From positions 1,019-65,018 of the forward strand of contig DAOPQD010000006.1 of NCBI GenBank assembly GCA_035347995.1: a stretch of DNA of 64,000 nucleotides, written 5' to 3'. Every line of letters begins with the position of its first letter. The stretch's first letter is position 1. This DNA is from Anaerolineae bacterium (GTDB lineage: Bacteria > Chloroflexota > Anaerolineae > B4-G1 > SLSP01). The notes beneath the pieces were generated by a model. That model was not told the DNA's origin, searched no databases, and saw nothing but the letters and a program-made list of their open reading frames with translations. The translations under genes and the position numbers were made by a program. Of the stretch, positions 4,021 to 56,209 are shown piece after piece.

Positions 4021-4200
4021 CTATTCCTGGCCTTCTTCTGCATCGCCCGACAGCTTCAGGCGCTCCAACAGGTGTTGCAGCCAGGAGCGACGCTCAGGAG
4101 AATGTTGTGCCGGCTTCTGGACGCGGCGAAGGCGCGCGACAGCGTGGCGCAGCTTTTGCATTTTGACGACTTGTTCTTCGGTCTCTGGTTTCGTGGCCAT
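4021..4200 (-). CDS. Candidate small ORF (59 aa, MATKPETEEQVVKMQKLRHAVARLRRVQKPAQHSPERRSWLQHLLERLKLSGDAEEGQE), not in the ORF track (below length cutoff)
   Basis: ATG 10 nt downstream of the response-regulator stop on the same strand. Helical, charged composition. Coding status unproven. Confidence 0.25.
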   Translation of the reverse strand: MATKPETEEQVVKMQKLRHAVARLRRVQKPAQHSPERRSWLQHLLERLKLSGDAEEGQE

Positions 4201-14124: not shown

Positions 14125-14160
14125 TTCTTTTATACTTCCCACGGTCACAATCTTTCATTA

Positions 14161-14483
14161 GTAACCGTTCAGCTACCAGCCAGGGAACGGCATAGATTTC
14201 CGGGTAATTGCTGGAAATTAAGAATTAAACTTGGTTATACGCATAATCTTTTACCTTCCCTGTCCCCTGGCTCCTTCCCCCCGCGCCGCGGGGGGAAGGA
14301 GAACTTTTTTTGTGGGGTTTTGCAGGCGGGCGCAGCCCGCCTGCAAAACCCTTTATTTTTTTCGCCCCCTCCCCAACGGCGCACACGCTGTTGGGGAGGG
14401 GGCTGGGGAAGGGGAAAAAGCTTCCAAGTCACAAAAGTTCATCCATCGCTGTCTGGCTGCCTGGCGCCAGGCTAAACAGCTAC
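14161..14483 (+). mobile_element. MITE-like triple-hairpin element, copy A (imperfect TIR GTAACCGTTCAGC / GCTAAACAGCTAC; three 12-17 bp GC-rich hairpins)
   Basis: Highly similar along its length (by eye) to 48118..48428 and to the reverse complement of 43755..44055. Non-coding. Confidence 0.6.
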
Positions 14484-16555: not shown

Positions 16556-16560
16556 TTCAC

Positions 16561-16650
16561 CTCCGCAAGCGATAAAGCGAAAAGGCGATAAAGCGAAAAG
16601 GCGAATCACTTACGTTCGCACCTTTACACCTTCACACGTGGACGCCTTCA
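16561..16650. repeat. GAAAAGCG-rich short repeat element, intergenic copy (gcgataaagcgaaaaggcgataaagcgaaaaggcgaatcacttacgttcgcacc...)
   Basis: About 75% identical over ~50 nt to the in-frame copy at 31100..31200. See findings. Confidence 0.4.
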
Positions 16651-16700
16651 CGCCTTATGGCGTCTCCGGTGGCAAGCTGGGGCCGGGGAGTGCGCTTCTC

Positions 16701-22358: not shown

Positions 22359-22433
22359 CGGGGCGTGGCGCAGTTTGGTCAGCGCGCGCGGTTTGGGTCC
22401 GCGAGGCCGTCGGTTCAAATCCGACCGCCCCGA
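22359..22433 (+). tRNA. tRNA-Pro (anticodon TGG)
   Basis: Hand-folded cloverleaf. Acceptor CGGGGCG/CGCCCCG. D-arm GCGC-AGTTTGGTCA-GCGC. Anticodon stem CGCGG/CCGCG with loop TTTGGGT. T-arm GTCGG-TTCAAAT-CCGAC. Discriminator A. No encoded CCA. Confidence 0.8.
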
Positions 22434-25739: not shown

Positions 25740-25917
25740 AAGATTCACTGAGCGGTGCGGGCTGATAGGAGGCATTTCCCATGCCCCCGTCTTCTTCTCC
25801 TCGCGTTGTACCGCCTCATGGGATTGTGGTTGAGATAGGCTGGATGGATGCTTTACCTTCTGTGTGCGAAATACAACGAGTAACGTTGTTTTTGATGCAA
25901 GAAACGCGAAGTGTCCG

Positions 25918-26757
25918 ATGATGTCCAACAAAAACCTCGGCTCAATGGGTGCGCGATTGCTCACGGCGTTGGTAGAAGAGAATCGTCAGGTTTTTTCAAT
26001 CGCCGATGCCCAGCGATATCTTAGCGCATATGCGGACAAACCTTATTCGTATGCAGCCGCAAATGAGCTCTTGCGCCGTCTGGGACGGGCCGGTTGGGTA
26101 GTGCGCCTGAGCGCCGGGCGCTATGCACTTGTCCCATTGACATCAGGCAACACCCTCACGCCGCAACTCAACCGCTATGTAATTGCCCGGGAGGTGTTGG
26201 GGAATGCACCCTACTATATCTCACATGAAAGCGCGATGGAAGTTCACAATCTGCTCACCCATCCTGTGGGACAAGTGCTGGTGACTACCCCCAGGCGTTT
26301 GGCATCGCGTGAGATTTTGGGGATACCTTATCGCTTCATCTATGCGCCCCCTGTTGGCATCTGGGGCAACGAGCTGCGATGGGTGACCCCTTATGAGCAG
26401 GTAATGGTCAGTGACCTTGAGAGGACCTTGCTTGATGGCCTCATGCGTACTGATCTGTGTGCTGGCATTGGACAGGTTGCTACGGCGCTCTGGATGCGCC
26501 ATGATGAGCTTGATGGGGAGAAATTGGCGGATTATGCTGAGCGGGCGCATCATCGTGCTGCTGCCCAACGCCTGGGTTATTTGCTGGAACTTTATGGATT
26601 AGGGACGCCGGATTTGGCAGCCAGGCTTCTGGGGCTGAGAGGAACAGCATACGCTCTCTTGGACCCATTGTTGCCGGATGAGGGTCCCTACCTCTCGCGT
26701 TGGCGTTTGCGCATCAACATCGAACCGGAAACATTACAAAGCAGCATTAGGACGTGA
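25918..26757 (+). CDS. AbiEi-family antitoxin / transcriptional regulator (type IV TA, COG5340-like)
   Basis: N-terminal wHTH-like region (LLTALVEENRQVFSIADAQRYL). Typical ~280 aa length. Directly followed by an AbiEii gene. Confidence 0.65.
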   Translation: MMSNKNLGSMGARLLTALVEENRQVFSIADAQRYLSAYADKPYSYAAANELLRRLGRAGWVVRLSAGRYALVPLTSGNTLTPQLNRYVIAREVLGNAPYYISHESAMEVHNLLTHPVGQVLVTTPRRLASREILGIPYRFIYAPPVGIWGNELRWVTPYEQVMVSDLERTLLDGLMRTDLCAGIGQVATALWMRHDELDGEKLADYAERAHHRAAAQRLGYLLELYGLGTPDLAARLLGLRGTAYALLDPLLPDEGPYLSRWRLRINIEPETLQSSIRT

Positions 26758-26760
26758 GAT

Positions 26761-27567
26761 ATGATACCTCCAGGCGAAGTGGCACGTCTTGCGCATCGAG
26801 CAAGAGTGAGCGATAAGACAATCGAAGCCGATTATGTGTTGACATGGACTTTATTGGCGCTGGCTAATTTATCCTTGCGTAACACTTTGGCGTTTAAAGG
26901 GGGCACCGCTCTCAAAAAGATGTATGTGCCAGATTATCGCTTCTCTGAGGACCTGGACTTCACAGTACTCGAAAAGATTTCCAATGCTGATTTGCTCGTC
27001 GAATTCGAGAAACTCTTTGTGTGGTTGCGCCGTGAGGTCAACCTCACGGTCGCGGTGCGCCGCCTGGAAATCCATGTAACGGGCAATCCGGCTCTGTATC
27101 TTAACTACATAGGCCCCTTGCAGGGTAATCTGGAAAGCCGATTTTTCAAGGTTGATTTCACTCATAATGAGCAAATCGTATTCCCCCTCTCTGAACTGCC
27201 GGTAAAATCTCCTTATAGCGATTGCCAGCAACGTTTGGAGACGCTGTGTGTTTATTCTCCCGAAGAAATCCTGGTCGAGAAACTCTGTGCATTGTTGGGG
27301 CGAACCGAACCACGCGACTTGTACGATATTCACTACATCTTTGAGCATGACCTGGCTGATATCGAAACCGTTTCCTACAAAATAGGTGACAAAATGGCTC
27401 TCAAGGGCTTGCAGCAAACTGCGTTGCGGGACGTTTTGGCGCGCAAGCATCATGCACTGGAGCGGCTATGGGAATTGCGATTGCGAGGGCAAATGCCGGA
27501 ATTGCCCTCCCTGGAAACCGTCATTCGTGAGACCGAGCGACATTTGCGACGGTGCGGGCTGATATGA
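26761..27567 (+). CDS. AbiEii/AbiGii-family nucleotidyltransferase toxin (DUF1814)
   Basis: ...LAFKGGTALKKMYVPDYRFSEDLDFTV... is the nucleotidyltransferase signature of the family. Confidence 0.75.
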   Translation: MIPPGEVARLAHRARVSDKTIEADYVLTWTLLALANLSLRNTLAFKGGTALKKMYVPDYRFSEDLDFTVLEKISNADLLVEFEKLFVWLRREVNLTVAVRRLEIHVTGNPALYLNYIGPLQGNLESRFFKVDFTHNEQIVFPLSELPVKSPYSDCQQRLETLCVYSPEEILVEKLCALLGRTEPRDLYDIHYIFEHDLADIETVSYKIGDKMALKGLQQTALRDVLARKHHALERLWELRLRGQMPELPSLETVIRETERHLRRCGLI

Positions 27568-29630
27568 AGCGCCTCTCGCGCTCCCGTCTCATCGTCCTCG
27601 CCCTGCTCCTCCTCGGTGCGGGGCTACGCCTGGCGGCGCTGGGCGATGTCCCGCCGGGCCTCTACCACGACGAAGCCTTCAACGGGCTGGACGCGCTCCG
27701 GGTCATAGAAGAGGGCGATTTTCCCCTCTATTTCCCCGCGAACAATGGCCGCGAGCCGTTGTTCATTTATCTCATCGCGGCCTCGGTGAGCGTGTTGGGA
27801 CGCTCGCCCCTGGCTGTGCGCCTGCCGTCCTTCTTTGTGGGCTTCCTCACCCTGGCCGCGACCTATGATCTGGCTCGCGTGCTCTTCAATCGCCGGGTGG
27901 GACGCTGGACGCTGGCGGTGCTGGCGGTGACCTTCTGGCACGTGCACCTGAGCCGGATGGGATTCCGCGCGGTGTTACTGCCGCTCTTCACGGCACTTTT
28001 CCTCGCGCAAGCGGCGCGGGGCGTGAAAAGGGGCCGCGCGCGGCACTGGCTCGCGGCGGGTGCACTTTACGGCGGGATGTGGTACACCTACATGGCGGCG
28101 CGCTTCACGCCGATCGCGTTGGGCGTGGTGTTGCTTGTGGCGCTGGCGACCCGGCGCCGCGAGGCGCTGACACATTGGCGCGGCGGGCTGTTGTTTTGCG
28201 CCGCGGCGCTGCTCGTGCTGGCCCCCCTTGGCGCGTACACCCTCCAACATCCCGACATCGTCCTGGCGCGCACCGGGCAGGTGACGATTTTCAGCCCGGA
28301 GATCAACGGCGGCGACCTGTGGGGCACTCTTCTGCGGCACGTCTGGAACACCGCCGCAATGTTCTTCATCCGGGGCGATCGGATCTGGCGGCACAACCTC
28401 GCCTGGCGTCCCGTGTGGGATCCGGCGTTGGGAGTAGCCTTCGTGGTGGGCGTGGGCGTGGCGTTGGGCGGCATTTTTAGCGCAGCGGCGCAGCGGCGCG
28501 GTGTGGGAGAGGGGAAGACTGGCGTACCCCCGTTCTCCTTTGCGATGATCTTGCTGTGGACGGCGGTGATGGTGTTGCCGACATTGCTCGCCGAAGATGC
28601 GCCGCACTTCCTCCGTGGGGTGGGGGTCTTGCCGACGGCGGCTTTGTTCCCGGCGTTGGGCCTGGCGTGGATCGAGTCACGAGTCGCCCCCCACCCATCA
28701 CCCATTACCCATCACCCATTACATTTTACGTTTCACGTCTCACGCATTCCGCAGTACGCAGCACGTCATACATCAATCATATTATTGTGCATTGGACTAT
28801 TTTTCACCACCCACGACTACTTCTTCACCTACGCGCACGCGCCGCTGGCGTATCACTGGCTGGAAGGCGGCGCGGTGGATCTGGCGGGCGCGCTGAACGC
28901 GGCGCGCGGCACGGGCTGGGATGGCGCGCGGATGTTGCATGGGCCGGACAACGGGCGGGTCCTGCTCGTGGACCGCGTCCTCTGGGAGTCGTGGGAGGCC
29001 TTGCCCTTCCTGGTGCCGGAAGAACGGGTGACGTTCTTGCCGTTGGAAACGCCGCCCGCGCTGGACCAGGGACTGACCTTTGCGGTGTGGCCCTACCGCG
29101 ACTGGCAGGCGGAGGTGTTCTCACTTATCGCACGCCCCGCCTATTTGAGCGTTCATTCCGGCCCGCAGGTGCAGGGGGACAAGGACCCGGCACCCTACAC
29201 GGCGGCGTTGCTCATCACGGCGGACTCACGCCCGCCTGTGCCGGAAGCCATCGCGCGCTTTGGCGAGGCGAACGGGGAAATTCTCCTGCGGGCGGCGCTG
29301 GTACGTCCAGACGTCGGGGGATCAACGGTACGGCTGTGGTGGGATTGCGTCACCCCGCTAGCGGCGGACTACACAGTTTACGTGCACTATCTGCGGGACG
29401 GGGAGCTGCTCACCCAACACGACATGCCGCCGGGGGAGGGACATCTGCCGACATCGCATTGGTCGCCGGGCGATCTCATCCTCGACGAGCATTTTCTGCC
29501 GGCGGTGATCCCCGATCCCGCGCGCGATACGCTCCGTGTGGGCTTTTATCGCAGCGATACCGGCGAACCCTTGGGAACGTGGATTGAGGTGGGAGTGATT
29601 GTGGAGAGCGATGAGGCGAAAAGGCGCTAA
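27552..29630 (+). CDS. GT-C fold glycosyltransferase, ArnT/PMT-like (GT39/GT83-type) with C-terminal extracytoplasmic domain
   Basis: ...YHDEAFNGLDALRV...NGREPLFIYLIAASVSV... resembles the ArnT/PMT N-terminal region. Multi-TM. Carries an in-frame low-GC insert at ~28681..28810. Confidence 0.7.
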   Translation: MRADMKRLSRSRLIVLALLLLGAGLRLAALGDVPPGLYHDEAFNGLDALRVIEEGDFPLYFPANNGREPLFIYLIAASVSVLGRSPLAVRLPSFFVGFLTLAATYDLARVLFNRRVGRWTLAVLAVTFWHVHLSRMGFRAVLLPLFTALFLAQAARGVKRGRARHWLAAGALYGGMWYTYMAARFTPIALGVVLLVALATRRREALTHWRGGLLFCAAALLVLAPLGAYTLQHPDIVLARTGQVTIFSPEINGGDLWGTLLRHVWNTAAMFFIRGDRIWRHNLAWRPVWDPALGVAFVVGVGVALGGIFSAAAQRRGVGEGKTGVPPFSFAMILLWTAVMVLPTLLAEDAPHFLRGVGVLPTAALFPALGLAWIESRVAPHPSPITHHPLHFTFHVSRIPQYAARHTSIILLCIGLFFTTHDYFFTYAHAPLAYHWLEGGAVDLAGALNAARGTGWDGARMLHGPDNGRVLLVDRVLWESWEALPFLVPEERVTFLPLETPPALDQGLTFAVWPYRDWQAEVFSLIARPAYLSVHSGPQVQGDKDPAPYTAALLITADSRPPVPEAIARFGEANGEILLRAALVRPDVGGSTVRLWWDCVTPLAADYTVYVHYLRDGELLTQHDMPPGEGHLPTSHWSPGDLILDEHFLPAVIPDPARDTLRVGFYRSDTGEPLGTWIEVGVIVESDEAKRR

Positions 29631-29700
29631 AGCGAAGAGACGTTCACTCGCTTTCTCGCTCACTCGATTTTTCGCTCAACCACTCAATGTGAAGCAGATG
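29615..29700. repeat. GAAAAGCG-rich repeat element forming a hairpin across the stop codon of the GT-C gene
   Basis: gcgaaaaggcgctaaagcgaagagacgttcactcgctttctcgctcactcgatttttcgc. The second half is the reverse complement of the element seen in-frame at 31455..31535. Confidence 0.4.
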
Positions 29701-30075
29701 TTGGACGGCGTGAAATTCCGGGTCGCCGGTGACGAGGGTGGCATTCAATTCCTGCGCCAGCACCGCGGCGAAGGCGTCGGCGTAAGACACGGGATAATGG
29801 GCTTTGAGATGGGCCACGCTCTGAATCTGCTCAAATGACGCAGGCACGAGCTGGATTGGCCCTTCTTTCAACGTGCTGATGAAATTCTGAACGCCTGCCA
29901 GGCCCTTCTCCCGCTCGATAACATACAGAACTTCTCCTACATCGATCTCGCTCATATAGATTTGACAACCCAGCGCTTGTGCCTGCTGTAAAAGCGCATG
30001 CACACGAAAATAGCCGGGTTGATGACGAATTTGGGCAATGATGGCAGATGAATCTAACACATACACGCGCGTCAT
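29644..30075 (-). CDS. vapC: PIN-domain toxin VapC
   Basis: VYVLDSSAIIA...TLVTGDPEF PIN acidic residues. Start at MTRVYVLD (30075) overlaps the vapB stop by 4 nt. Confidence 0.7.
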   Translation of the reverse strand: MTRVYVLDSSAIIAQIRHQPGYFRVHALLQQAQALGCQIYMSEIDVGEVLYVIEREKGLAGVQNFISTLKEGPIQLVPASFEQIQSVAHLKAHYPVSYADAFAAVLAQELNATLVTGDPEFHAVQHLLHIEWLSEKSSERESE

Positions 30076-30368
30076 GATTGGGGGTCGCTTTTGGGTTTGG
30101 AGGGCTCTTGCCACTGGCGGATTTTGGCTTCTTCGCGCTCATAATCTGCCCGCCGCTCTTGTAATAGAATATCGGTCCAGTTTACGCCATCCTCATCGGC
30201 GAACATGCCGTTTAGCGCGGCAACGAGATCGTCAGGCACCGGCACGATGGCGGTCACGTCGCCATAAGTTACAATTTGTACCCGTGTGCCCGGGTACAAG
30301 CCTCGGGCTTCCCGGATTTCTTTAGGTATCACGATAGCGCCTTTTGTGGATACAGTGACCGTTTTCAT
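30072..30368 (-). CDS. vapB: AbrB/SpoVT-family antitoxin VapB
   Basis: MKTVTVSTKGAIVIPKEIREARGLYPGTRVQIV is a swapped-hairpin beta-barrel. Upstream of and overlapping vapC. Confidence 0.65.
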   Translation of the reverse strand: MKTVTVSTKGAIVIPKEIREARGLYPGTRVQIVTYGDVTAIVPVPDDLVAALNGMFADEDGVNWTDILLQERRADYEREEAKIRQWQEPSKPKSDPQS

Positions 30369-30425
30369 CTTACCTGTTCCTTATTTTGTATAACGAATCT
30401 ATAAATAGAACTGAAATACGATCCA

Positions 30426-33400
30426 ATGTCAACATCCAGCTCTTCCCGCATGACGCATTCCGCATCGCGCCTTACGTTTTACGCATTTCTATTCCTCCTT
30501 CCCCTCCTTGCAGCCTTTCCGCTGTGGGGACCGGGGATGGTGAATACGCGCGGCGGCGGCGACAGCCCCTTTCTGCTGCAGCGCACGCTGGATATGGCCG
30601 AAAATCTGCGTCACGGCATTTTCCCCGCGCGCTGGATGGCGCACGCTGCCTATGACCTGGGATATCCGTTCTTCAATCATTACGCCGCGCTGCCCTTCTA
30701 CCTGAGCGGCGGTCTGACGGCGTTGGGCCTCTCACCCCTGCTGGCGATCCAGGCGACGCAGACGCTGGGCTTCCTCCTCGCCGCGCTGACGCTGGCCTTG
30801 TGGGCGCGGCGCGTCTACGGCAACCGATGGGCCACGCTGCTGGCGGTCGCGGCGTACACCTTCGCGCCATTCCATCTGGTGAACGTCTACGTGCGCGGCG
30901 ATTCGCTCTCCGAATTTTGGGCCTTCGTCTGGTATCCTCTCATCCTGTGGACGCTGGATCGCGTCGCCGAGCACCCCACGCTGCGCCGGGTCACCCTTGC
31001 TGCGCTGAGCTACGCTGCCCTGATCCTCACGCACAACGTCTCGGCGTTCATCTTCGCGCCGTTCGCGCTGTTGTATGCAGCAATTCAACGAGTTGGCGAG
31101 TCAACGCAGCAGCGAGAAGGCGAAAAGGCGGAAAAGCGAGAAGGCAAGTCAGCGAATCGCATTTCACGCAGCACGCAGTACGTAGTACGCCTTATCGCTC
31201 CTTTCCTCCTTGCCTTCCTTCTCACGGCCTGGTTCTGGATTCCCGCCATCGGCGAGACGGGCTACGGGCAGATGGGACCGGAGTTCACGGCGGGATATTT
31301 CCATTACAGCAACCACTTTCGCGGCCTGAACCTCGTACAGCGCACGTTCTTGTTTGACTATTCGGTCGCCGGCGACGCTGCCGCTGCTGGCCCTTTTGCG
31401 ATGGGAGGAGTGCAGGCGGCGCTGGCGCTGCTTGGCGCGGGCGCGTTGATTTGGCAAATCGGCGAGTCAGCGAAAAAGCGAGAAAGCGAGTCAGCGACTC
31501 ACATCTTACGCAGCACGCAGTACGCCTTCATCCTTTTCTCCCTGGGTCTCTCCACGTTCATGATCACCCCGCTCTCCGCGCCGTTGTGGGAACATCTGCC
31601 GCTGCTGGCGACCACCCAATTCCCCTGGCGCTTCCTCTCCGTGCAGGCGCTCTTCACGGCCATGGCGACGGCGGCGCTAGCAAATCGGCGGGAAGGCGAA
31701 AAAGCGGAGAAGCGAGAAAGCGACTCACGTTTCGCGCAGCACGCAGTCCCGGCCTTCCTGATTGTTTGCCTCGCGTTGGCTGCCCTCGGCGCGCTCCGTC
31801 CCGAACGCCTGCTCATCACCGCCGACGATGTGACATGGGACCCCCTGCTGCTCTACGAGGCGTTCACCGGCAACATCGGCACGACGATCCGCTATGAGTA
31901 TCTCCCGCGCGACGTGAAGCCGCGCCTGTATCTCTCCGAGGCGGTCGTAGATGGTGTGGACGCGGCGCAGCCCATCGCCGATGGCGGCGTGATGGCGACG
32001 GCGGTGCTCCTCGAGCGCCTCCCCGATCGCCAGACCTGGCAGCTCACGGCGGCCGGCGACGCTCCGGTGACGTTCCCCCTTATCTGGTGGCCGGGCTGGC
32101 AGGCGGAGGTGGACGGCGTCGTCGCCGACGCCTATCCCATGACCGGCTCCGGCCGGTTGACGGTGGACTTGCCGGCGGGGGAGCACACGGTCACGCTGCA
32201 GCTGCGCGCTACCCCGCTCCGCGCGGCGGCGGAGTGGATTTCGGCACTGACGGTCGTGGGGCTATGCGCGGTGTTTTTTCAGCACAGAGGTGTCGAGGCG
32301 CGAAGACGCAAAGAGCTGGCCGACTTTTTGAAAGCTGGCCTTGGATCCACAGGAGCGCTTTTGTCGGTGGCCGCGCTGGCAGTGATTCTCCCTGCCCTCT
32401 TCTCCCCCTCTTCCTCTCTCCCTTTCTCCCTCTCTCCTGCTCCCGCCACCTTCGACTTCATCCAAATGCCTTGGGCCACGCGCGGACCGGTCTATTTTGG
32501 CACGCCATGGCACGCGCAGTTGGGAACGGGCGATGCTGTGCTCACCGCCGTCGGCGCGCTGCCCCATGGGGTTTCCCCCGCTCAAATGCTCCCTGTCCCG
32601 CTGACGTGGGAGCTGCCCACCCCCAAGTCCATCACGGCTACCCTGCGTCTGGTTTCGCCGGCGGAGCCCCGTCATGGCGTCTCCTACGGCCTCGCGGAAA
32701 CGACGTTCACGCTGGCCGGGCAGGTCACGCCGACGCTGGAATTGCCGGCCGATCTCTCTCGCGGCCTGTATCTGCTCGAATTGCGCGTCTTCGGCATAGA
32801 TGGCGAGCTGCCGGCGCGCACGGCTACCGGCGCGGAGCGGGGCGCGCTCTACCTCGGTGCGGTGCGGGTGACGCAGGGACCTTCGCTGCCCGCGGACGCG
32901 CCTGTGCTGGCGCGCTTCCGCGATCTGACGCTGCACACCGTCGAAGTGCAGCCGCCCGATCCGACGACGTTGCGGCTGAAACTGCACTGGTCGCTGGCGC
33001 AGCGGACCCCGCGCAACTGGAGCCTCTCGCTGCGGCTGCTCGACGCGGACGGACGGCAGCTCAGTCAGGCGGATCTGCAGCCCGGCTACGGCTATTTGCC
33101 CACCACACTCTGGCAGGCGGGCGAGCTCGTCACGGATTACCCCACGCTCTCACTGCCGGAAGGGCTGGCCCCTGGCGACTACACGCTGCACGTGATTTCC
33201 TACCTCGAGGCGACGATGGAGACCGGCGGCGAGGTCGCGCTGCCCCTCGAGCTCACGGGGGTAACGGTGCGCGATCCGCGCGAACGCTGTTGCGAGTGGC
33301 AATACCGCGAGGAACAGACCCTGTGCGCGGCCGGCGGTGTGACTCTCATCAGCCTGGCGCTGCCGGAGGCGCATCCCGAAGGGGCGGCGCTGGAGTTCAC

Positions 33401-34100
33401 CGCCGAGTGGTACGCCGCCGCGCCCCCTTCCGCCGATCTGATCGCTCGCTGGGAGGCGCTGGATGCGGCGGGGAACGGCGTCGCGACGTGCGAGGGCCCC
33501 CTCGCGCCCGGCTCGCGCACCTCTGCGTGGCCTCGCTTCGCGTGGGTGCGCGCCCCGGTGACACTCGCACTCCCGCCGCTGCTGCCCGATGGCCCCTACA
33601 CGCTGCGTCTGACGCTGCTCGCAGAGGGCGCCATCACCCAGACCTGCGAGCTGGGCGCGCTGAACATCGTCCCACGCCCGCGCAGCTTCACCTTGCCCGC
33701 GCCGACCTATCCCCAACAGGCGGCCTTCGGCGGCGAGCTGCGCTTACTCGGCTACGACCTCAGCCGCGACGCCGACACGCTTCGGGTGACGCTGTGGTGG
33801 CAGGCGCAGACCGTTCCCGCGCGCGACTACAAGCGCTTCGTCCACGTGATTGCCCCCTCTGGGGACATTCTCGCGCAGGACGACGCCATGCCCCGCGCGT
33901 GGACCTATCCTACCAGCTGGTGGGCCGCCGGTGAAGTCGTGAGCGAGACGGTGACGTTGCCTGCGCCGCCCGGCGACTATCGCCTGGGCGTGGGCTGGTA
34001 TGACGGCGACACCGGCGTGACGTTGCCGGCGACCGCCGCCGACGGGACACCGTGGGCCGATAATCGCGTCCTGCTGAATGCTGCGGCGCCTTCGAAATAG
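30426..34100 (+). CDS. Large GT-C-like membrane glycosyltransferase-family protein (1224 aa) with four tandem ~110-aa C-terminal extracytoplasmic repeats
   Basis: Multi-TM N-terminal domain with GT-C-like loops. C-terminal repeats share the L.WW...DY....PTS.W..GE.V.D...L.LP....PGDY.L.VG.YD pattern also found once at the C-terminus of 27552..29630. Three in-frame repeat-element copies. Confidence 0.6.
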   Translation: MSTSSSSRMTHSASRLTFYAFLFLLPLLAAFPLWGPGMVNTRGGGDSPFLLQRTLDMAENLRHGIFPARWMAHAAYDLGYPFFNHYAALPFYLSGGLTALGLSPLLAIQATQTLGFLLAALTLALWARRVYGNRWATLLAVAAYTFAPFHLVNVYVRGDSLSEFWAFVWYPLILWTLDRVAEHPTLRRVTLAALSYAALILTHNVSAFIFAPFALLYAAIQRVGESTQQREGEKAEKREGKSANRISRSTQYVVRLIAPFLLAFLLTAWFWIPAIGETGYGQMGPEFTAGYFHYSNHFRGLNLVQRTFLFDYSVAGDAAAAGPFAMGGVQAALALLGAGALIWQIGESAKKRESESATHILRSTQYAFILFSLGLSTFMITPLSAPLWEHLPLLATTQFPWRFLSVQALFTAMATAALANRREGEKAEKRESDSRFAQHAVPAFLIVCLALAALGALRPERLLITADDVTWDPLLLYEAFTGNIGTTIRYEYLPRDVKPRLYLSEAVVDGVDAAQPIADGGVMATAVLLERLPDRQTWQLTAAGDAPVTFPLIWWPGWQAEVDGVVADAYPMTGSGRLTVDLPAGEHTVTLQLRATPLRAAAEWISALTVVGLCAVFFQHRGVEARRRKELADFLKAGLGSTGALLSVAALAVILPALFSPSSSLPFSLSPAPATFDFIQMPWATRGPVYFGTPWHAQLGTGDAVLTAVGALPHGVSPAQMLPVPLTWELPTPKSITATLRLVSPAEPRHGVSYGLAETTFTLAGQVTPTLELPADLSRGLYLLELRVFGIDGELPARTATGAERGALYLGAVRVTQGPSLPADAPVLARFRDLTLHTVEVQPPDPTTLRLKLHWSLAQRTPRNWSLSLRLLDADGRQLSQADLQPGYGYLPTTLWQAGELVTDYPTLSLPEGLAPGDYTLHVISYLEATMETGGEVALPLELTGVTVRDPRERCCEWQYREEQTLCAAGGVTLISLALPEAHPEGAALEFTAEWYAAAPPSADLIARWEALDAAGNGVATCEGPLAPGSRTSAWPRFAWVRAPVTLALPPLLPDGPYTLRLTLLAEGAITQTCELGALNIVPRPRSFTLPAPTYPQQAAFGGELRLLGYDLSRDADTLRVTLWWQAQTVPARDYKRFVHVIAPSGDILAQDDAMPRAWTYPTSWWAAGEVVSETVTLPAPPGDYRLGVGWYDGDTGVTLPATAADGTPWADNRVLLNAAAPSK

Positions 34101-36673: not shown

Positions 36674-37735
36674 ATGAAAACTGCCGATCTTGACTATGAT
36701 CTTCCTGCGGAGCTCATCGCGCAGCAGGCGGTGGAGCCCCGGGACAGCTCGCGGCTGCTCGTCATTCACCGCGACACCGGTGCGCTGGAACATCGCGGCT
36801 TCCGGGAGCTGGGGGACTACCTTCATCCCGGCGATTTGCTCATCGCCAATGAGAGCCGCGTCATCCCGGCGCGGCTGTTTGGGCGGAAGACGCCCGGCGG
36901 CGGCAAAGTCGAAATTCTGCTGCTGCGGAATCTCGGCGCGGCTCGTTGGCGGGCGCTCGTGGGTGGAGCGCGCACGCGCGTGGGAAGCCACATGCAGCTG
37001 CTGCGAGGCGAAGAACCTCTCGCGCTCTACGCTGAAGTGGAGGCGAGCGGGGAACGCGGCGAGCGCACGGTGGTGTTCTCTGAGCCCATCGAGCCGTATC
37101 TCGACAGCATCGGGCAAATGCCCTTGCCGCCGTACATTCATCAGGCCCTGGACGACCCGGAGCGCTATCAGACGGTGTATTCGCGCACGCTGGGCAGCGC
37201 TGCCGCGCCGACGGCGGGATTGCATTTCACGCCGGAGCTGCTGCTCGCCTTGCGGGATCAGGGGGTGCAGCTGGCCTTCGTCACCTTGCATGTGGGGCTG
37301 GATACGTTCCGTCCGATCACGGAGGACTCCATCGAAGGGCATACCATCCACAGCGAATGGGCGACCCTCACGCCAGAAGTCGCCGCGCAGATCAATCAGA
37401 CGAAGGTGATGGGCGGGCGGGTCATCGCCGTGGGCACGACTTCGATGCGGGTGTTGGAGACCGCGGCGCGCGAGGGACTGCTGCAGACACCCGCGGAGGG
37501 GTGTCCGTGGCGCACGGTGGCGCCTTTCGAGGGCTTCACCCGGCTTTACATCACGCCTGGATTTCAATTCCGGGTAGTGGACGCGCTGATCACCAATTTT
37601 CACTTGCCGCGCAGTACCCTCCTGGCGTTGGTGATGGCCTTTGCGGGCGTCGAGCTCATCCGTAAAGCCTACGCCGAAGCCATCCGTGAGCGTTATCGCT
37701 TCTTCTCCTTGGGTGACGCTACGCTGATCCTCTAA
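36674..37735 (+). CDS. queA: S-adenosylmethionine:tRNA ribosyltransferase-isomerase
   Basis: MKTADLDYDLPAELIAQQAVEPRDSSRLLV...GDLLIANESRVIPARL is the canonical QueA N-terminus. Confidence 0.9.
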   Translation: MKTADLDYDLPAELIAQQAVEPRDSSRLLVIHRDTGALEHRGFRELGDYLHPGDLLIANESRVIPARLFGRKTPGGGKVEILLLRNLGAARWRALVGGARTRVGSHMQLLRGEEPLALYAEVEASGERGERTVVFSEPIEPYLDSIGQMPLPPYIHQALDDPERYQTVYSRTLGSAAAPTAGLHFTPELLLALRDQGVQLAFVTLHVGLDTFRPITEDSIEGHTIHSEWATLTPEVAAQINQTKVMGGRVIAVGTTSMRVLETAAREGLLQTPAEGCPWRTVAPFEGFTRLYITPGFQFRVVDALITNFHLPRSTLLALVMAFAGVELIRKAYAEAIRERYRFFSLGDATLIL

Positions 37736-43545: not shown

Positions 43546-43754
43546 GTGGGTGACGACATTTTGTTCGTGGAATTCTGACGGAGGCGCCGGTTGGAGGAAA
43601 AAGTGGCTGGCTTTAGCGCGGAGAGGATCTGCACGAAAAATCCGTGCGCCGGCGACGCAAGCGGGCGTCGGCGCAACTTTGAGCGCTTCAGAACGTAGAA
43701 GTAAGAAGGAGACGCCATGTGTTGGCGCACATCATCCAAGGATGAAAATGTGCG

Positions 43755-44055
43755 GTAACTGTTCAGCCTGGCGTCAGGTAGCTAGACGGCGATGGATGAA
43801 CCTTTGTGAACTGTAGCTTTTGCCCCACCCCCTGCCCCCTCCCCAACGGCGTCTGCGCCGTTGGGGAGGGGGAGAAAAAAATTGGGGCTTTGCAGGCGGG
43901 CGTAGCCCGCCTGCAAAGCCCCACAAAAAAAGTTCCCCTTCCCCCCGCGCTGCGCGGGGGGAAGGGGCCAGGGGATAGGGGGCAAAAGTTGATTCTCAAT
44001 CTTCAGCAATCACCAGGAAATCTTGCGTTTTTTAGTCAGTGGCTGAACAGTTACC
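43755..44055 (-). mobile_element. MITE-like triple-hairpin element, copy B (perfect 13-bp TIR GTAACTGTTCAGC / GCTGAACAGTTAC)
   Basis: Reverse complement aligns along its length with copies at 14161..14483 and 48118..48428. Interrupts a family-2 leader repeat. Confidence 0.6.
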
Positions 44056-44434
44056 CTGTGAGCCATAGCCCGTGAGCAGAGGCTGCAACAGCTCACCGCT
44101 GCGGCTGGGGATGGAATCCCCAGCCTGACAGGAGCCAACCGCGCTGAAGCGCGTTGTTTGAGGACGTAACAGCCCCGGGGGCCAGGAATTTCTCATCTGA
44201 TTCGTGAAATTCGTGTTCATTCGGGGCCATTTTTGCAGGAGACGCCAGGTGCTGGCGCACCTCATCCAAGGCTGAAAATGTGAGTCGTGAGCAGCGACGG
44301 CGACGGCTTACGGGTTCGACACGAGCCACCCACGCTGAAGCGCGTTGTTTGAGAGCGTAGCAGCCCGGGGGTAAGAAATTTCTGATCTGATTCGTGAAAT
44401 TCGTGCCCATTCGGGGCCATTTTCGAAGGAGGTA
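44056..44434 (+). repeat. Family-2 conserved leader repeat, one and a half tandem units, ending in AAGGAGG RBS of the downstream gene (a further fragment at 43706..43754 lies left of the MITE)
   Basis: Shares the blocks GCTGAAGCGCGTTGTTTGAG, TTCTGATCYGATTCGTGAAATYCGTG and GCCATTTT with the reverse complements of 50669..50910 and 54809..54975. The CCCGGAATTCATTCCGGG hairpin of copies b and c is reduced here to a cattcgggg remnant. Confidence 0.5.
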
Positions 44435-48082: not shown

Positions 48083-48117
48083 ACGTTTGCTATTTTTCAC
48101 ATAGTGGAAGTCTTTTT

Positions 48118-48428
48118 GTAACTGTTCAGCCACCAACTAAGAAACGGCATAGATTTTCGAGCAATTGCTGAAGATTGAGAATTAAATCCTGTTATACACA
48201 CAATTTCTTGCCCCCTATCCCCTGCCCCCGCGCTACGGGGGCAGGGGAACTTTTTTTTGTGGGGTTTTGCAGGCGGGCGCCGCCCGCCTGCAAAACCCCT
48301 TATTTTTCTCCCCCTCTCCAGCCGCATATGCGTCGCTGGGGAGGGGGCAGAGGGTGGAGCGAAAGCTACGGATTACAAAGGTTCGTTCATTGTCATCTGG
48401 GTAGTTGGCGCCAGGCGGAGCAGTTACC
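48118..48428 (+). mobile_element. MITE-like triple-hairpin element, copy C (TIR GTAACTGTTCAGCC / GGAGCAGTTACC)
   Basis: Aligns with copies A and B. Hairpin 1 differs in stem sequence (CCTGCCCCC vs CCTTCCCCCC) with compensating changes on the other arm. Confidence 0.6.
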
Positions 48429-50668: not shown

Positions 50669-50910
50669 AATTACTTGCGTGGCAAATGTAACGCGAACTT
50701 CAGGCCGCTCTCAGGCCGTCCCGAATGAATTCCGGGTCTGCCATGTGAGGCCCGCTGAAGCAGGCTTCCAAACAACGCGCTTCAGCGCGGTTGGCTCGTG
50801 TCGGGCTGAGGATGGAATCCCCAGCCGCCCCGTGAGCCGTCGCTGTCGCTGCTCACGACGCACATTTTCATGCTTGCGGGGTGTGCGCCCGCACATGGCG
50901 TCACCTGCCC
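50669..50910 (-). repeat. Family-2 conserved leader repeat upstream of the beta-helix gene (copy b)
   Basis: Reverse complement contains GCTGAAGCGCGTTGTTTG, the CCCGGAATTCATTCGGG hairpin and the GAGGAGG RBS, as in copies a and c. Confidence 0.5.
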
Positions 50911-52624: not shown

Positions 52625-54808
52625 TCAGTAGTTCCGTAACACCAGCGGCAGGTACAGGTAGACGAATCTCCCCTCGTCCGCCCCGACGTCGGGTGACGGG
52701 CCGATAGGCCGGGGGTCGCCGTCTATGTCCCGCCTGACCCAGGTCAGCAGCAGGGCGTGGTCAGCGGCGTTGGAGCCGAACCGGAGATGATAGTCGGGCA
52801 ACAGCCTCGCCGGGCCGGACACTTCGTTCGTGCTGGTGACCCCCGGGCTGTAGTTGCTTTCGTTGCCCTCGAACAACGTATAATCGGCCGTGACCGTGCT
52901 GGTAGGCGACGCAGTGTTGGTGATGCCCACCGTCTGACTCACGATGAGGTTGTTGTACAGGAGCACCTTGCTATTGCCGCCGACATACACTCCGACCCCA
53001 TCGCCGCTCAGGTTGGCGACGAGGGTGTTGTGCGCCATTCGCCCTCTGATGAGCCCACTGTTGACAATCGCCACGCCGCTGCCGGTGGCGCTGACCGCGT
53101 TGCGCGCGATGATGTTGTTGGTCAGCGTGAAGACGTGGCACGAAGCTACCCGCACCCCGCCACCGTTGCCAGTTGTGGCGCCGCTGGCCTGATTATCCAG
53201 GATGGTGTTGCCTTCCAGCCACGGCCTGGCGCCCGAGAGCGCAAAGCCGCCGCCGAAACCTGTGCCCCCGTAACTGGTGGTGTTGCTGAGGACCTCGTTG
53301 CCGACGAAGCGGGGCGTGCCTCCCCGGACATCGACCCCGCCTCCTGCGCCCCAGCCCTCAGGAGCAGAGTTGGCGACGTTCTGGGCGATGCGGTTATCCT
53401 GAACCAGGACCACGCTCCTCGAGATCGCCATCCCGCCGCCCCAGCCCCAGCCGCCCCCCGCGCCCAGCACGGCCATGTTGTCGGTGATGATGTTCTCCTC
53501 GAGCAATCCGCCCCCGCCGTTGACGTAGAAGCCGCCGCCGTAGCCGGGGGTCTTGGACGAGGCGATATTATCGAACACCCGATTAGCCATCACCGTGGCG
53601 TAGCAGTCGTCCAGATAGAGGCCGCCGCCGTTGCCGTCAGCGACGTAACTGGCGCGGTTGTCATCGGCCACCACGTTCCCGCTCACCTCCGCTGCGGCAG
53701 ATAGGTTGTGCAGATACATCCCCCCACCCAGGCCGCGTTGGTCCAGCAAGGTGGCGACGTTGCCATAGACCCGGTTGTCGCGGATGACGGCCAGCGGGCC
53801 GTCGAAGAAAATGCCGCCGCCGCGGCTGAAGAGTCCCGGATCGGCCGTACCCTTGAGAGCGACATTGCCCTGGATCAGGTTGCGCTCTATCGTCACCGCC
53901 CTGTCCGAGTCTACGAAGATGCCGCCGCCGTGGGCCATCATATCTTGGCCGGCGACGTTGCGCAGGAGGCGATTGTCGGCAAGGACAGGGCTGCCGCCGA
54001 TCACGGCGATCCCGCCGCCGTTGCCCGCCGAGTGACCGGCGCGGTTGGTCTGGAGGGTATTGGAGAGCACCTGGGGGGAAGCATTCTCCAGATAGATGCC
54101 GCCTCCCCACCCCACGTTGCCGTCGTCGGCCACGTTGTTGGCGATGAGGTTGTTGCTGATGACGGCAGTGGCCGGAGCGTTGACCAGGTAGAGGCCCCCG
54201 CCGCGCCCATAGCCGGTGCAGGCTGCCGTCATGCAACCGTAGTTGCCGGTGATGATGTTATTGGCGATGAGGGGGGCCGCATTCCGCGCCGCGATGCCGC
54301 CGCCGTGGTTGGGGCCGTCCGCCGCGCCGCCCGCATTGCCGCCGGTGATGGTGAAACAGTCAATCGTGGGACTGGACTTGGTGATGCTGATGACCCGTGA
54401 GGTTCCGCTCCCGTCTAGAACCACGTTCTCCGGGTTACAGGCGGTGGGGGCCCAGACCCAATCTGTTCCCACAGGGTTGGGATGAGCCTGCCACGCGCCA
54501 TCCAACGTGACTGTCTTGGTGACGACGATGGGCCCATAAAAGGCGGAGGGCCCGGCGATGTCATCCCGGTCGGCCACACAGATCGTCTCGCCGGCCGATG
54601 CCCACTTCAGGGCGTACTGGATGGATTTACACGGGTTATTGGGGTTGCTGCAGGTATTTTCAGGGCTGTTGTTGCCGCCGTTGACCACATAGCGGTTGCA
54701 CGGCACGGCAGCCTGCGCCTGGATAACGGGGCCCTTCAACGCGAGCACCAACAGGAGCGCCAGTCCCAGGCCAATTCCGATAGCTACCAGTAAACGTAGG
54801 GTACGCAT
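52625..54808 (-). CDS. Secreted right-handed parallel beta-helix repeat protein (727 aa) ending in ...LYLPLVLRNY
   Basis: Signal peptide or N-terminal TM. Many ~22-aa beta-helix coils (G.I...N.I..N..GGGIY...). GAGGAGG RBS. Confidence 0.75.
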   Translation of the reverse strand: MRTLRLLVAIGIGLGLALLLVLALKGPVIQAQAAVPCNRYVVNGGNNSPENTCSNPNNPCKSIQYALKWASAGETICVADRDDIAGPSAFYGPIVVTKTVTLDGAWQAHPNPVGTDWVWAPTACNPENVVLDGSGTSRVISITKSSPTIDCFTITGGNAGGAADGPNHGGGIAARNAAPLIANNIITGNYGCMTAACTGYGRGGGLYLVNAPATAVISNNLIANNVADDGNVGWGGGIYLENASPQVLSNTLQTNRAGHSAGNGGGIAVIGGSPVLADNRLLRNVAGQDMMAHGGGIFVDSDRAVTIERNLIQGNVALKGTADPGLFSRGGGIFFDGPLAVIRDNRVYGNVATLLDQRGLGGGMYLHNLSAAAEVSGNVVADDNRASYVADGNGGGLYLDDCYATVMANRVFDNIASSKTPGYGGGFYVNGGGGLLEENIITDNMAVLGAGGGWGWGGGMAISRSVVLVQDNRIAQNVANSAPEGWGAGGGVDVRGGTPRFVGNEVLSNTTSYGGTGFGGGFALSGARPWLEGNTILDNQASGATTGNGGGVRVASCHVFTLTNNIIARNAVSATGSGVAIVNSGLIRGRMAHNTLVANLSGDGVGVYVGGNSKVLLYNNLIVSQTVGITNTASPTSTVTADYTLFEGNESNYSPGVTSTNEVSGPARLLPDYHLRFGSNAADHALLLTWVRRDIDGDPRPIGPSPDVGADEGRFVYLYLPLVLRNY

Positions 54809-54975: not shown

Positions 54976-55035
54976 TAGATTGCAGGTCAGTGAGGGGGGC
55001 ACAATCCGACAGCTACATCGGTGGATACGGGGTGG

Positions 55036-55200
55036 CTGGATGCTGGATACTGGATGCTGGATACTGGATACTGGATGCTGGATGCTGGATGCTGGATACT
55101 GGATGCTGGATGCTGGATACTGGATGCTGGATACTGGATGCTGGATGCTGGATGCTGGATACTGGATGCTGGATGCTGGAGGCTGGAGGCTGGATACTGG
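55036..55200. repeat. Heptanucleotide microsatellite (TGGATRC)n, ~23 units
   Basis: ctggatgctggatactggatgctgg... seen directly. Intergenic, ~230 bp upstream of the beta-helix gene start. Confidence 0.8.
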
Positions 55201-55420
55201 CCGTCACTCATTACCCATCACCTATCACTCCCTCCCCCATTACCATCTGCGGTGAGTCCTGGCACAATTTCATTATAGCACGCTTTTTTAGCTGGCGCGC
55301 ATAGAATTTCCTGGCGAGTGCCGCGGCCGCGAGCCTGAGAGCGCCAGGAAACGGCCTCCGCGCGCCGCAACGGCCTCAAGGATGGAGTTGCCTCATCGCG
55401 CTGGCGGGGTGAACGCTTCC

Positions 55421-56209
55421 TCACAAATCGGCTTCTATGCCCTGGGTAATGCAGGCGACAAGACGCAATAATTTATCCATGATGTGCTCTGCATGAATAT
55501 TCCCTTCATGTTTTGCCTGGCTCAGGCGGTCCGATACCACACTTACCCAGCTGCATTTCAGCCCCAGCCTCCTTCCGACTGTAAAAAAGGCTGATGATTC
55601 CATCTCGATCGTGAGGACTCCCAAGTCCCGCAGACGCTCGATCAGATGCGCTTCTTCCCGATACAGAGCCTCCGTCCCAAATGAAAGTCCTATGGTATGG
55701 GCCTCATTTTGTTGCGTCAGGTGGCGGTGAAGCAGCGCCGTCAAGCCGAAATCGGCGACGGCTGGATATTCGATCGGCGCGTAGTATCTCGAGACGCCGT
55801 CGCCTCGGATAGCCCCTTCGAGCAGGATCGTATCTCCGATCTGGAGAGTGTCTTGGAGCGCGCCTCCCAACCCCAGCCCAATCACATACTGGATTCCGCA
55901 AGCGGCTAATTGCTCCAACGAGTTGGCAATTCTTGCCCCGCCATACGACGGAAAATGAATTGCAAAACGCTTTCCGCTCTTGGTGACACACCGCTGCACC
56001 GGCGTGGTGCTGTAGGGCCACTTAAAGGCCGGGTCAATTTGGGGAAGCGTTTCGACTACCTGCCGAAAGAGACCAGAACTGAAGAGGACTAAACACGTCT
56101 TCCCAAGGTCCGCATTTTCTGGATCAAAGCCATGATAGAGGAAATCCTCTCGAGGGGTGACATAGCAGGCATCGCCAGTCCAAATATCATCACAAAAGAT
56201 TGAGTCCAT
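55421..56209 (-). CDS. Nucleoside phosphorylase family protein (PNP/UDP_1 fold; MTA/SAH-nucleosidase or futalosine-hydrolase-like)
   Basis: ...GLGLGGALQDTLQIGDTIL... and ...LTIEMESSAFF... fold motifs. Confidence 0.65.
   Translation of the reverse strand: MDSIFCDDIWTGDACYVTPREDFLYHGFDPENADLGKTCLVLFSSGLFRQVVETLPQIDPAFKWPYSTTPVQRCVTKSGKRFAIHFPSYGGARIANSLEQLAACGIQYVIGLGLGGALQDTLQIGDTILLEGAIRGDGVSRYYAPIEYPAVADFGLTALLHRHLTQQNEAHTIGLSFGTEALYREEAHLIERLRDLGVLTIEMESSAFFTVGRRLGLKCSWVSVVSDRLSQAKHEGNIHAEHIMDKLLRLVACITQGIEADL

Follow-up and report, generated by a model that had tools for sequence, protein, structure and literature searches.

We analysed a 64,000-nucleotide stretch of DNA from an Anaerolineae bacterium (assembly GCA_035347995.1, contig DAOPQD010000006.1, positions 1,019 to 65,018), hereafter called the window, in which three copies of a short repeat module lie in frame inside a single gene. 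This host gene (30426..34100, plus strand) is an intact open reading frame (ORF) of 1224 aa encoding a GT-C-fold membrane glycosyltransferase (PTPS_related/YfhO-like) with C-terminal domains predicted to be extracytoplasmic. An initial annotation had likened the repeat to palindromic elements that insert in frame, such as the Rickettsia palindromic elements (RPEs) and the Correia elements of Neisseria. The sequences and translations it quoted for the three segments are present as given.

The host protein matched the Pfam families PF10131 (PTPS_related) and PF09586 (YfhO) weakly, below their curated cut-offs. Its AlphaFold (AF2) model has a predicted TM-score (pTM) of 0.83, and Foldseek searches with this model returned STT3/PglB, Pmt4, EmbB, DPY19 and AftB with probabilities of 0.99-1.00; because of these matches, the protein is assigned the GT-C fold. 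It has 845 homologues, the named ones being from Anaerolineae/Chloroflexota, and GGGDSPF, an acidic motif of the first external loop, shows no variation across the alignment. GT-C enzymes generally carry their beta-rich C-terminal domain outside the cytoplasm, and the beta-rich domain after residue 460 was taken as extracytoplasmic. Given this position, helices 433-456, 357-379 and 245-281 would cross the membrane in the outward direction. The AF2 model, the GT-C fold, the position of the beta domain and the positive-inside rule together suggest that the insert-bearing loops (~223-245, 344-365 and 420-432) and the N-terminal tail are cytoplasmic. At the three insert positions, insert-free orthologues have short Arg/Lys-rich loops, in agreement with the positive-inside rule. 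A scan of 29400-31900 for promoters and terminators gave no signal above shuffles.

A repeat search of the window placed three in-register 68-nt copies (31112-31179, 31454-31521 and 31680-31747) in one repeat family, with pairwise matches of 53/68, 50/68 and 55/68 (74-81% identity). They have a common layout: five or six 8-nt units beginning with GCG or GCA (GCGAnnnn; e.g. GCGAGAAG, GCGAAAAG and GCGAGTCA), a junction GCGAmTCAC..., and two to four 7-nt units (CGCAGCA, CGCAGTA and CGTAGTA, of the CGCAGYA type, and also CGTTTCA and similar). Copy 1 (31112..31179, in wider limits 31095-31195) consists of the octamers GCGAGAAG GCGAAAAG GCGGAAAA GCGAGAAG GCAAGTCA GCGAATCG followed by CATTTCA CGCAGCA CGCAGTA CGTAGTA. 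It codes for REGEKAEKREGKSANRISRSTQYVV in the loop preceding the transmembrane (TM) helix ~245-281 and was matched by nhmmer with E = 8.5e-19. Copy 2 (31454..31521, wider 31445-31530) reads GCAAATCG GCGAGTCA GCGAAAAA GCGAGAAA GCGAGTCA GCGACTCA, then CATCTTA CGCAGCA CGCAGTA, and copy 3 (31680..31747, wider 31672-31760) reads GCAAATCG GCGGGAAG GCGAAAAA GCGGAGAA GCGAGAAA GCGACTCA, then CGTTTCG CGCAGCA CGCAGTC; all three are on the plus strand.

Tandem Repeats Finder (TRF) called arrays with a period of 8 nt (31112-31145 and 31462-31501) and one with a period of 7 nt (31165-31190), and the 8-nt register was also seen in a second repeat family (8-nt spacing) from the repeat search. In a period census of the window, the strict threshold gave two tracts of period 7 and six of period 8 (shuffles ~0), the relaxed threshold five and ten (shuffles 0.9 and 0.65), and the control periods 4, 10, 11 and 13 gave zero tracts. 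The 13-mer CGCAGCACGCAGT occurs exactly three times in the 64 kb, once per copy; with up to two mismatches it has 11 matches against 3.9 +/- 2.1 in shuffles, a number that no shuffle reached. The module thus combines head-to-tail units of fixed short period, as in a compound tandem repeat, with a non-periodic junction shared by the three copies beyond the repeated motif, as in a dispersed family.

The anchor shared by the copies is read in codon phase 0 in copies 1 and 2, where it yields RSTQY, and in phase 1 in copy 3, where it yields SRFAQHAV (AQHAV). The motif (I/L)(S/L)RSTQY attributed to every copy by the initial annotation is therefore found in copies 1 and 2, but not in copy 3, in which the same DNA is translated one phase off. 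Copies 2 and 3 can be aligned end to end (81%) and are translated in different frames. Because the shared anchor is read in two codon phases, the similarity of the three copies resides in the DNA and not in the protein; they share descent at the DNA level and differ in frame. This agrees with the earlier remark that they resemble each other in DNA beyond what paralogous protein segments would. All nine sense frames of the three copies are without stops, the antisense frames have stops, and no peptide is conserved in a single frame in the way that characterises RPEs.

Loop lengths, measured from one conserved anchor to the next, were compiled for 117 homologues. The median is 29 aa for loop 1 (interquartile range (IQR) 28-30), 35 aa for loop 2 (IQR 35-41) and 38 aa for loop 3 (minimum 34), against 49, 47 and 47 aa in the host gene, which exceeds the homologue median by 9-20 aa in all three loops. 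The orthologue alignment that had been proposed as a check for insertion thus came out positive: because the loops are short and tightly sized among the homologues, the three segments are insertions relative to the ground state of the family. Where a homologue does have a long loop, which is seen in only a few, the loop consists of low-complexity peptides with a period of 7 or 8 residues (TFHVSRF, IANRKSQ, ESANxE and similar). The start of a TM helix had been counted as part of each repeat; since the helix following copy 1 is conserved in insert-free orthologues, it is host sequence. A cluster of strains at least 93% identical in the same GT-C family (P0060 cluster) has its indels confined to the same loops, with GC-rich hairpin elements. 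At 2145-2390 of L010, compared with L011/L012, a 75-nt hairpin insert (CCCCTCTCCTGACC-tcc-GGTCAGGAGAGGGG) lies in frame in loop 3 of one strain only; elsewhere in the cluster a 27-aa proline-rich linker is missing from another strain, and five members are 416-aa C-terminal fragments beginning directly after this linker. Because the indels among these strains are confined to the same loops, these GT-C loops are general hot spots for the insertion of small elements.

A syntenic locus of a sister species (L013; PMT_2-PIN-MazE-GT-C-DegV-GH1) encodes a GT-C protein 69% identical to that of the window (DNA 75-82%). Modules of this family are present there at the N-terminus and at the three loops, in the same places as in the window. 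They are longer and cleaner, each being (GCGANNNA)7-9 and then 7-8 heptamers, and up to five units in a row are perfect. The unit counts differ from those of the window at all three loops, loop 2 having three more octamers and three more heptamers (45 nt), so that the unit number varies between related genomes as in microsatellites. Segments at the same positions with conservation at the protein level had been named as the outcome that would speak against mobile inserts; the inserts of L013 are indeed at the same positions, but they belong to the same DNA family and have other unit numbers. The unit spectra are distinct: the window loci are all X-CGCAGCA-CGCAGTA, and those of L013 are CGTTTCA...CGCATTA without CGCAGCA. 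Sharing of 9-mers amounts to 0.10-0.21 for orthologous module pairs and 0.09-0.28 for non-orthologous cross-genome pairs, and within genomes to 0.24-0.40 in L013 and 0.13-0.29 in the window. The modules, which were present in the ancestor with the sister species, thus predate the split, but their orthology signal has been erased by unit turnover and some inter-locus exchange, since orthologous copies share no more 9-mers than non-orthologous ones across the two genomes.

Outside these two loci, the junction was searched as the pattern GCGAnTCnCnTnTnnCGCAGCACGCAGT (22 specified bases, matching all three copies) over 596 Gb of genomes and a metagenome collection. In the genomes it occurs at one other place only, in another Anaerolineae metagenome-assembled genome (L005), and in the metagenome collection only in an activated-sludge contig of the same species (L006). 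The L005 module, (GCGAATCR)5-CGTATTA-(CGCAGCA CGCAGTA CACAGTA...)10 (nhmmer E = 1e-9), lies in frame in an ORF of at least 1771 aa, which runs off the locus and matches DUF2298 strongly and Glyco_transf_22 weakly, below the threshold. The same giant DUF2298/GT-C ORF contains two more in-frame tracts, with 8-nt and 7-nt periods, at 1568-1628 and 1767-1840, and a duplicated GEPQGEPQPTGGLPLQAAA segment. The membership of L005, like that of the non-coding copies of the window described below, rests on alignment and on an nhmmer profile of the three copies. Against 1.84 billion representatives, the copy-1 peptide had a single match, the sister orthologue P0272.

Other GT-C genes carry other tracts. 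An orthologue with 63% protein identity (L002) has a different module, (AAAGTCR)n-(ACGAATY)n-(CCGTCTA)n, co-linear at three loops of two GT-C genes, and (CACGTTT)n or (CACGCCT)n tracts are in frame in three GT-C genes of L003 and in one of L008. P0178, a match of a peptide search, led to another GT-C gene, which has three heptamer tracts, and perfect runs of 3-5 units are found in both L008 and L013. Searches with synthetic repeat peptides gave, aside from P0178, only short and probably spurious ORFs, so that host families could not be ranked. P0121 (locus L007), which has TUTase/PAP-associated and gag-aspartyl-protease neighbours and looks eukaryotic, was set aside as unrelated. Arrays of the (CACGTTT)n type (FTFHVSR repeats in short ORF calls; P0130-P0217, L008, L009) occur across several phyla; a single Desulfococcaceae genome (HSG8) has many of them, and Poribacteria and Verrucomicrobia have further ones, which suggests that the heptamer motif extends far beyond Anaerolineae. 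All in-gene cases found so far are in GT-C genes (9 genes in 6 genomes), and the module is part of the repeat repertoire of an Anaerolineae lineage, its family recurring in such genes across the class.

These comparisons bear on whether the tracts could have arisen independently in each loop, slippage building similar tracts de novo from a locally or mutationally favoured motif and without copying. Different lineages do have different motifs at the same loops, and the tracts evolve through unit turnover, as would be expected. The non-periodic junction is nevertheless essentially unique in the 596 Gb, yet it is present three times here and once in a gene of another genome, and the three-part L002 module recurs co-linearly at three sites; we regard independent origin as very unlikely.

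Variation within the species was assessed by comparing the window with two further assemblies, L001 (GCA_035374885.1, 99.4%) and L006 (ENA UPSM01013683, 98.8%). Tract lengths were identical in the three assemblies, and no tract contained an indel. Between the window and L006, mismatches were 4.3-fold enriched in the tracts (20/533 vs 48/5297, P = 1.5e-6). The codon changes were 0 synonymous and 15 non-synonymous within the tracts, compared with 26 and 15 outside (P = 1e-5). Copy 2 differs from its L006 counterpart by 10 substitutions in the tract, 8 of them within 31 nt, which resemble the replacement of units. The tract sequence appears to be free of amino-acid constraint; since the ancestor with the sister species, whole units have been gained and lost and substitutions have ignored the encoded amino acids. 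At the L006 position equivalent to 31468 of the window, copy 2 contains an in-frame TAA (GE*ARKRKGGKAS), which may reflect a pseudogene, readthrough or an assembly error. L001 showed no mismatch enrichment in the tracts, but a 100-N gap lies exactly at copy 3. The 100-N scaffold gaps of this assembly are at 4061-4161 (copy 3) and at 9980-10079 (near window 37608-37662), and because of them the database holds the host protein only as a 'partial 381 aa' fragment (P0001).

Two further explanations can be weighed here. The first takes the segments for ancient structural protein repeats, paralogous linker-plus-TM segments conserved for function, and finds some support in the closest relatives, which have inserts at the same three loops. 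The same DNA is however read in two frames, most homologues are without the segments, none of the 15 codon changes in the tracts is synonymous and non-coding copies exist. The frame difference and the absence of the segments from most homologues led us to rule this explanation out, its residual probability being negligible. The second explanation takes the tracts for contingency loci: genes for surface glycosylation would retain repeats of non-triplet units because slippage in them switches the enzymes on and off. Glycosyltransferases are classic targets of simple-sequence-repeat switching. The hosts are glycosyltransferases, with all in-gene cases found in GT-C genes, and 7- and 8-nt units shift the frame. 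Perfect 3-5-unit runs exist in L013 and L008, copy 2 of L006 has a stop, and among the homologues several gene calls from metagenomes break at loops of this kind. In the window, by contrast, the units are degenerate with no adjacent identical pair, so that slippage should be rare, and the tracts are spread along the gene instead of lying near its 5' end. The L006 stop is a substitution and not a slip, and the split gene calls may be assembly or sequencing errors in repeats, as L001 has its N gaps there. Neither a perfect tract nor a length polymorphism between strains, the marks of a phase-variable locus, was found in the comparison of window, L001 and L006, and phase variation seems unlikely.

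Related tracts occur elsewhere in the host gene and in the window. In the putatively cytoplasmic N-terminal tail of the host, a heptamer tract (30443..30482, plus strand) reads GCATGAC GCATTCC GCATCGC GCCTTAC GTTTTAC; its position is occupied by (CACGTTT)3 in L013, and the N-termini of orthologues are likewise repeat-encoded. Behind the TM helix ~641-659, a tract of 8-nt period (CCCTCTCT-like; 32390..32448, plus strand), found by TRF and by the period census, encodes LFSPSSSLPFSLSPAP, a linker that is an indel hot spot also in the P0060 cluster. The adjacent PMT_2 (ArnT-like) GT-C gene (27552-29630) contains a plus-strand heptamer tract at 28681..28771 (CCATCAC CCATTAC x2, NTTTCAC x3, GCAGTAC GCAGCAC). 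The copy of the repeat that the initial annotation reported in this gene corresponds to this tract, but only the heptamer block is in common with the modules and the nhmmer match is weak (E = 0.65). In L002, L003 and L013, the loops orthologous to the PMT_2 tract carry compound tracts. The PMT_2 and YfhO-like genes are adjacent or overlapping in L002 and L003, and the PIN/MazE pair is present between them in L013.

The intergenic copies reported earlier fared unequally. The tract at 16560..16660, (GCGATAAA GCGAAAAG)2 GCGAATCA followed by CACGCCTT-type octamers, is non-coding as described; it has a 5' untranslated position directly upstream of the ribosome-binding site and ATG of a minus-strand MoxR-type AAA ATPase gene (start 16555), and its 16569-16611 part is matched by the profile of the three copies with E = 1.5e-4. 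The element at 29607..29690 lies at the PMT_2/PIN junction, and its two octamer blocks, the first GCGAAAAG-type and the second CTCGCTTT-type, form a palindromic pair. It is not simply intergenic, because the convergent PMT_2 and PIN ORFs have their 3' ends there and both terminate within it. The same profile matched 29608-29677 on both strands (E = 1.5e-3 and 9e-3), and 29607-29690 folds with -32.1 kcal/mol (z = -1.5). A histidine kinase, a bactofilin-domain protein and an unassigned ORF, three other TM-rich proteins of the window, have no tracts. A further array at 55008-55250 consists of near-perfect (GCTGGAT/GCTGGAT-A)24 heptamers (pure array 55022-55207) followed by CCATYAC-type heptamers. 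It occupies the spacer of two minus-strand genes, upstream of a beta-helix gene (52625-54808) and downstream of a PNP_UDP_1 gene (55421-56209), and many of its units contain an ATG. The sole gathering-score match in an Rfam search of the whole window was a tRNA (22359-22433), and no family was returned for the modules.

We next considered a mobile element, that is a small palindromic non-autonomous transposon resembling an RPE or a miniature inverted-repeat transposable element (MITE), mobilised by a transposase and in frame by chance. Dispersed copies in unrelated loci and in another genome and gene fit this idea, as does the palindromic block pair at 29607-29690. In an inverted-repeat scan the ends of copy 1 (15 nt, 87%) and those of copy 3 (18 nt, 72%) were weakly complementary, and another lineage of the same gene family has hairpin elements with strain-level presence/absence in the same loops, in frame. 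RNA folds of the three copies did not exceed 200 dinucleotide shuffles, however (z = -1.03, +0.18 and -0.17; all tested copies -1.5 to +0.8), and a reading of the element as an RNA or DNA hairpin was dropped for this reason. Complementarity between the left block and the downstream flank was exceptional for copy 1 only (13/15; 0/166 background windows), and that flank is the conserved TM-coding sequence; the notion that the purine-rich block repeats, in inverted orientation, the TM-coding sequence that follows it, being supported for copy 1 only, was not adopted. The inverted-repeat scan found no terminal inverted repeats common to the copies, only weak, copy-specific pairs. No target duplication was seen on reading the flanks, which were not given a dedicated scan and whose boundaries are fuzzy since the ends are themselves repeat units. 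Differences between the copies are in whole units of 7 or 8 nt, and those between orthologous copies in unit number, which is the behaviour of a microsatellite and not of a cut-and-paste element; nor is there a transposase among the nearby genes. Of the properties of RPEs, in-frame insertion with absence from orthologues was observed and a stable hairpin was not. The proposed likeness to RPE and Correia elements therefore extends to non-coding copies and to tolerance in frame at permissive sites, but not to a palindrome or consistent inverted repeats, and a mobile element is distinctly unlikely.

Taken together, the module is probably a dispersed, compound microsatellite-like repeat that evolves by unit slippage and exchange between copies and whose in-frame copies are tolerated in cytoplasmic loops as spacers free of constraint. 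The best-supported reading is that it is vertically inherited over short spans and changes fast. Exchange between tracts, by ectopic recombination, gene conversion or template switching, would both spread the copies and keep them alike, and tract length would drift through slipped-strand mispairing. Inside genes, the copies that survive would be those with the purine-rich, stop-free strand as sense, with a total length that is a multiple of three and in a loop that tolerates a flexible charged linker. As 7 + 8 = 15, a slip in the octamer block could be compensated by one in the heptamer block, the stretch between them being read in another stop-free frame; such paired slips may be the origin of the phase of copy 3 relative to copies 1 and 2. 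The encoded peptides would then be neutral spacers and not functional motifs.

Several points weigh against this explanation. No copying event has been caught, tract lengths being identical in the three assemblies of the species, and the copying mechanism is inferred, not observed. The 9-mer similarity within the window is not clearly above that across genomes, homogenisation being better shown for L013. Neutrality does not obviously predict that the in-gene cases are all GT-C, with none of the three other TM-rich proteins of the window affected, and this restriction hints at function or targeting. Finally, long perfect non-triplet runs in intact ORFs, as in L013 and L008, should bear a frameshift load.

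The module differs from the known systems that it most resembles. The cyanobacterial short tandemly repeated repetitive (STRR) sequences are said to be dispersed heptanucleotide tandem repeats (attributed to Mazel et al., 1990). Nostoc has small dispersed repeats (SDR; Elhai et al., 2008, cited in PMC3116915). These are reported to be very small, transposase-less dispersed elements inside conserved genes and nested in heptamer arrays; they are units of 21-27 nt with defined ends, whereas the module consists of tandem units. In some bacteria heptamer repeats are over-represented; most of them lie between genes, and coding sequence is depleted of them (PMC4692102). Heptamer arrays such as GGGAATC in Xanthomonas and GGGGAYT in Nostoc are, like the module, dispersed 7-nt units of variable number near gene ends and sometimes over stop codons, but they are single-motif and mostly intergenic (PMC4692102), while the module has co-linear octamer and heptamer blocks with a conserved junction and occurs in frame in ORFs. 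The contingency loci of Haemophilus, Neisseria and Campylobacter glycosyltransferases also place non-triplet tandem repeats in glycosyltransferase ORFs (PMC2651432); their tracts are perfect and length-polymorphic between close strains, in contrast to the degenerate units of the window with a length fixed in three assemblies.

RPEs are the classic small in-frame repeats, found between genes and inside unrelated ORFs at fold-compatible sites (PMC10969869), and the module is similarly dispersed, between genes and in frame in ORFs, at permissive sites. RPEs are however ~100-150 bp long and palindromic and encode a conserved peptide, whereas the module has ~70-120 nt of tandem 8- and 7-nt units without a significant hairpin, is read in several frames, varies in unit number between species and has been found in Chloroflexota with only GT-C hosts so far. 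Correia elements and other MITEs are likewise short non-autonomous dispersed repeats that may overlap gene ends and coding sequence (PMC10969869). They are defined by terminal inverted repeats and target-site duplications, unlike the module with its lack of consistent inverted repeats, and Correia elements are without its internal tandem-unit structure. A literature search for 7- or 8-nt repeats in Chloroflexi/Anaerolineae found no description of such modules; Chloroflexus aurantiacus tops the bacterial entries in the short-unit satellite table of a survey of prokaryotes (PMC6749651).

Other repeats and mobile-looking segments were observed in the window. A ~330-nt intergenic cassette is present in three copies (14158-14483, 43754-43980 inverted, and 48115-48428), each with a conserved AT-rich 98-nt stretch and then three GC-rich hairpins split by T/A runs (e.g. 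GGGGTTTTGCAGGCGGGCGCAGCCCGCCTGCAAAACCCC). The cassette has the appearance of a bidirectional multi-terminator or of a MITE-like module, and its GC-rich hairpins resemble the in-frame loop inserts of the P0060 cluster (L010, L011). Inverted repeats of 40-80 nt, 84-90% complementary and without an Rfam match, at 44101-44431 and 50764-50908 bracket a ~6.5-kb block, at the edge of which is a 68-nt direct repeat (44174-44241 / 44364-44431); with a gene GC content at third codon positions (GC3) of 0.62-0.65 vs ~0.78, this block may be an acquired or invertible segment. About 20 tandem 21-nt units (GGCTACGAGACCTGGGCTGGC; heptapeptide repeat) are found at 59519-59934, in the C-terminal portion of a subtilase (Peptidase_S8) gene (58088-60040). 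The GT-C pair has two toxin-antitoxin modules beside it or within it, AbiEi/AbiEii upstream (25864-27567) and PIN/MazE-AbrB between the PMT_2 and YfhO-like genes (29644-30368).

The results extend the RPE-type phenomenon of small repeats tolerated in frame to free-living Chloroflexota, with a different kind of element whose units are not a multiple of three. They also document coding sequence that microsatellite dynamics have built and remodelled, the same DNA being read in different frames within one protein. The hosts are filamentous bacteria abundant in activated sludge. Such tracts break assemblies (the N gap at copy 3 in GCA_035374885.1), split gene calls (L008; the 416-aa fragments) and inflate apparent divergence. 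If the exclusivity for GT-C genes holds genome-wide, it would point to regulated variability of the cell envelope. A bolder proposal, which we consider rather unlikely, is that class-wide Anaerolineae cassettes of 8+7 nt prefer the cytoplasmic tails and loops of GT-C enzymes, are actively copied within the genome and, through their paired unit sizes (7 + 8 = 15), correct their own frame, and that slippage reversibly switches or retunes surface-glycosylation enzymes while the ORF stays intact. If true, programmed variability of a kind not described before would exist in a phylum that is free-living and non-pathogenic.

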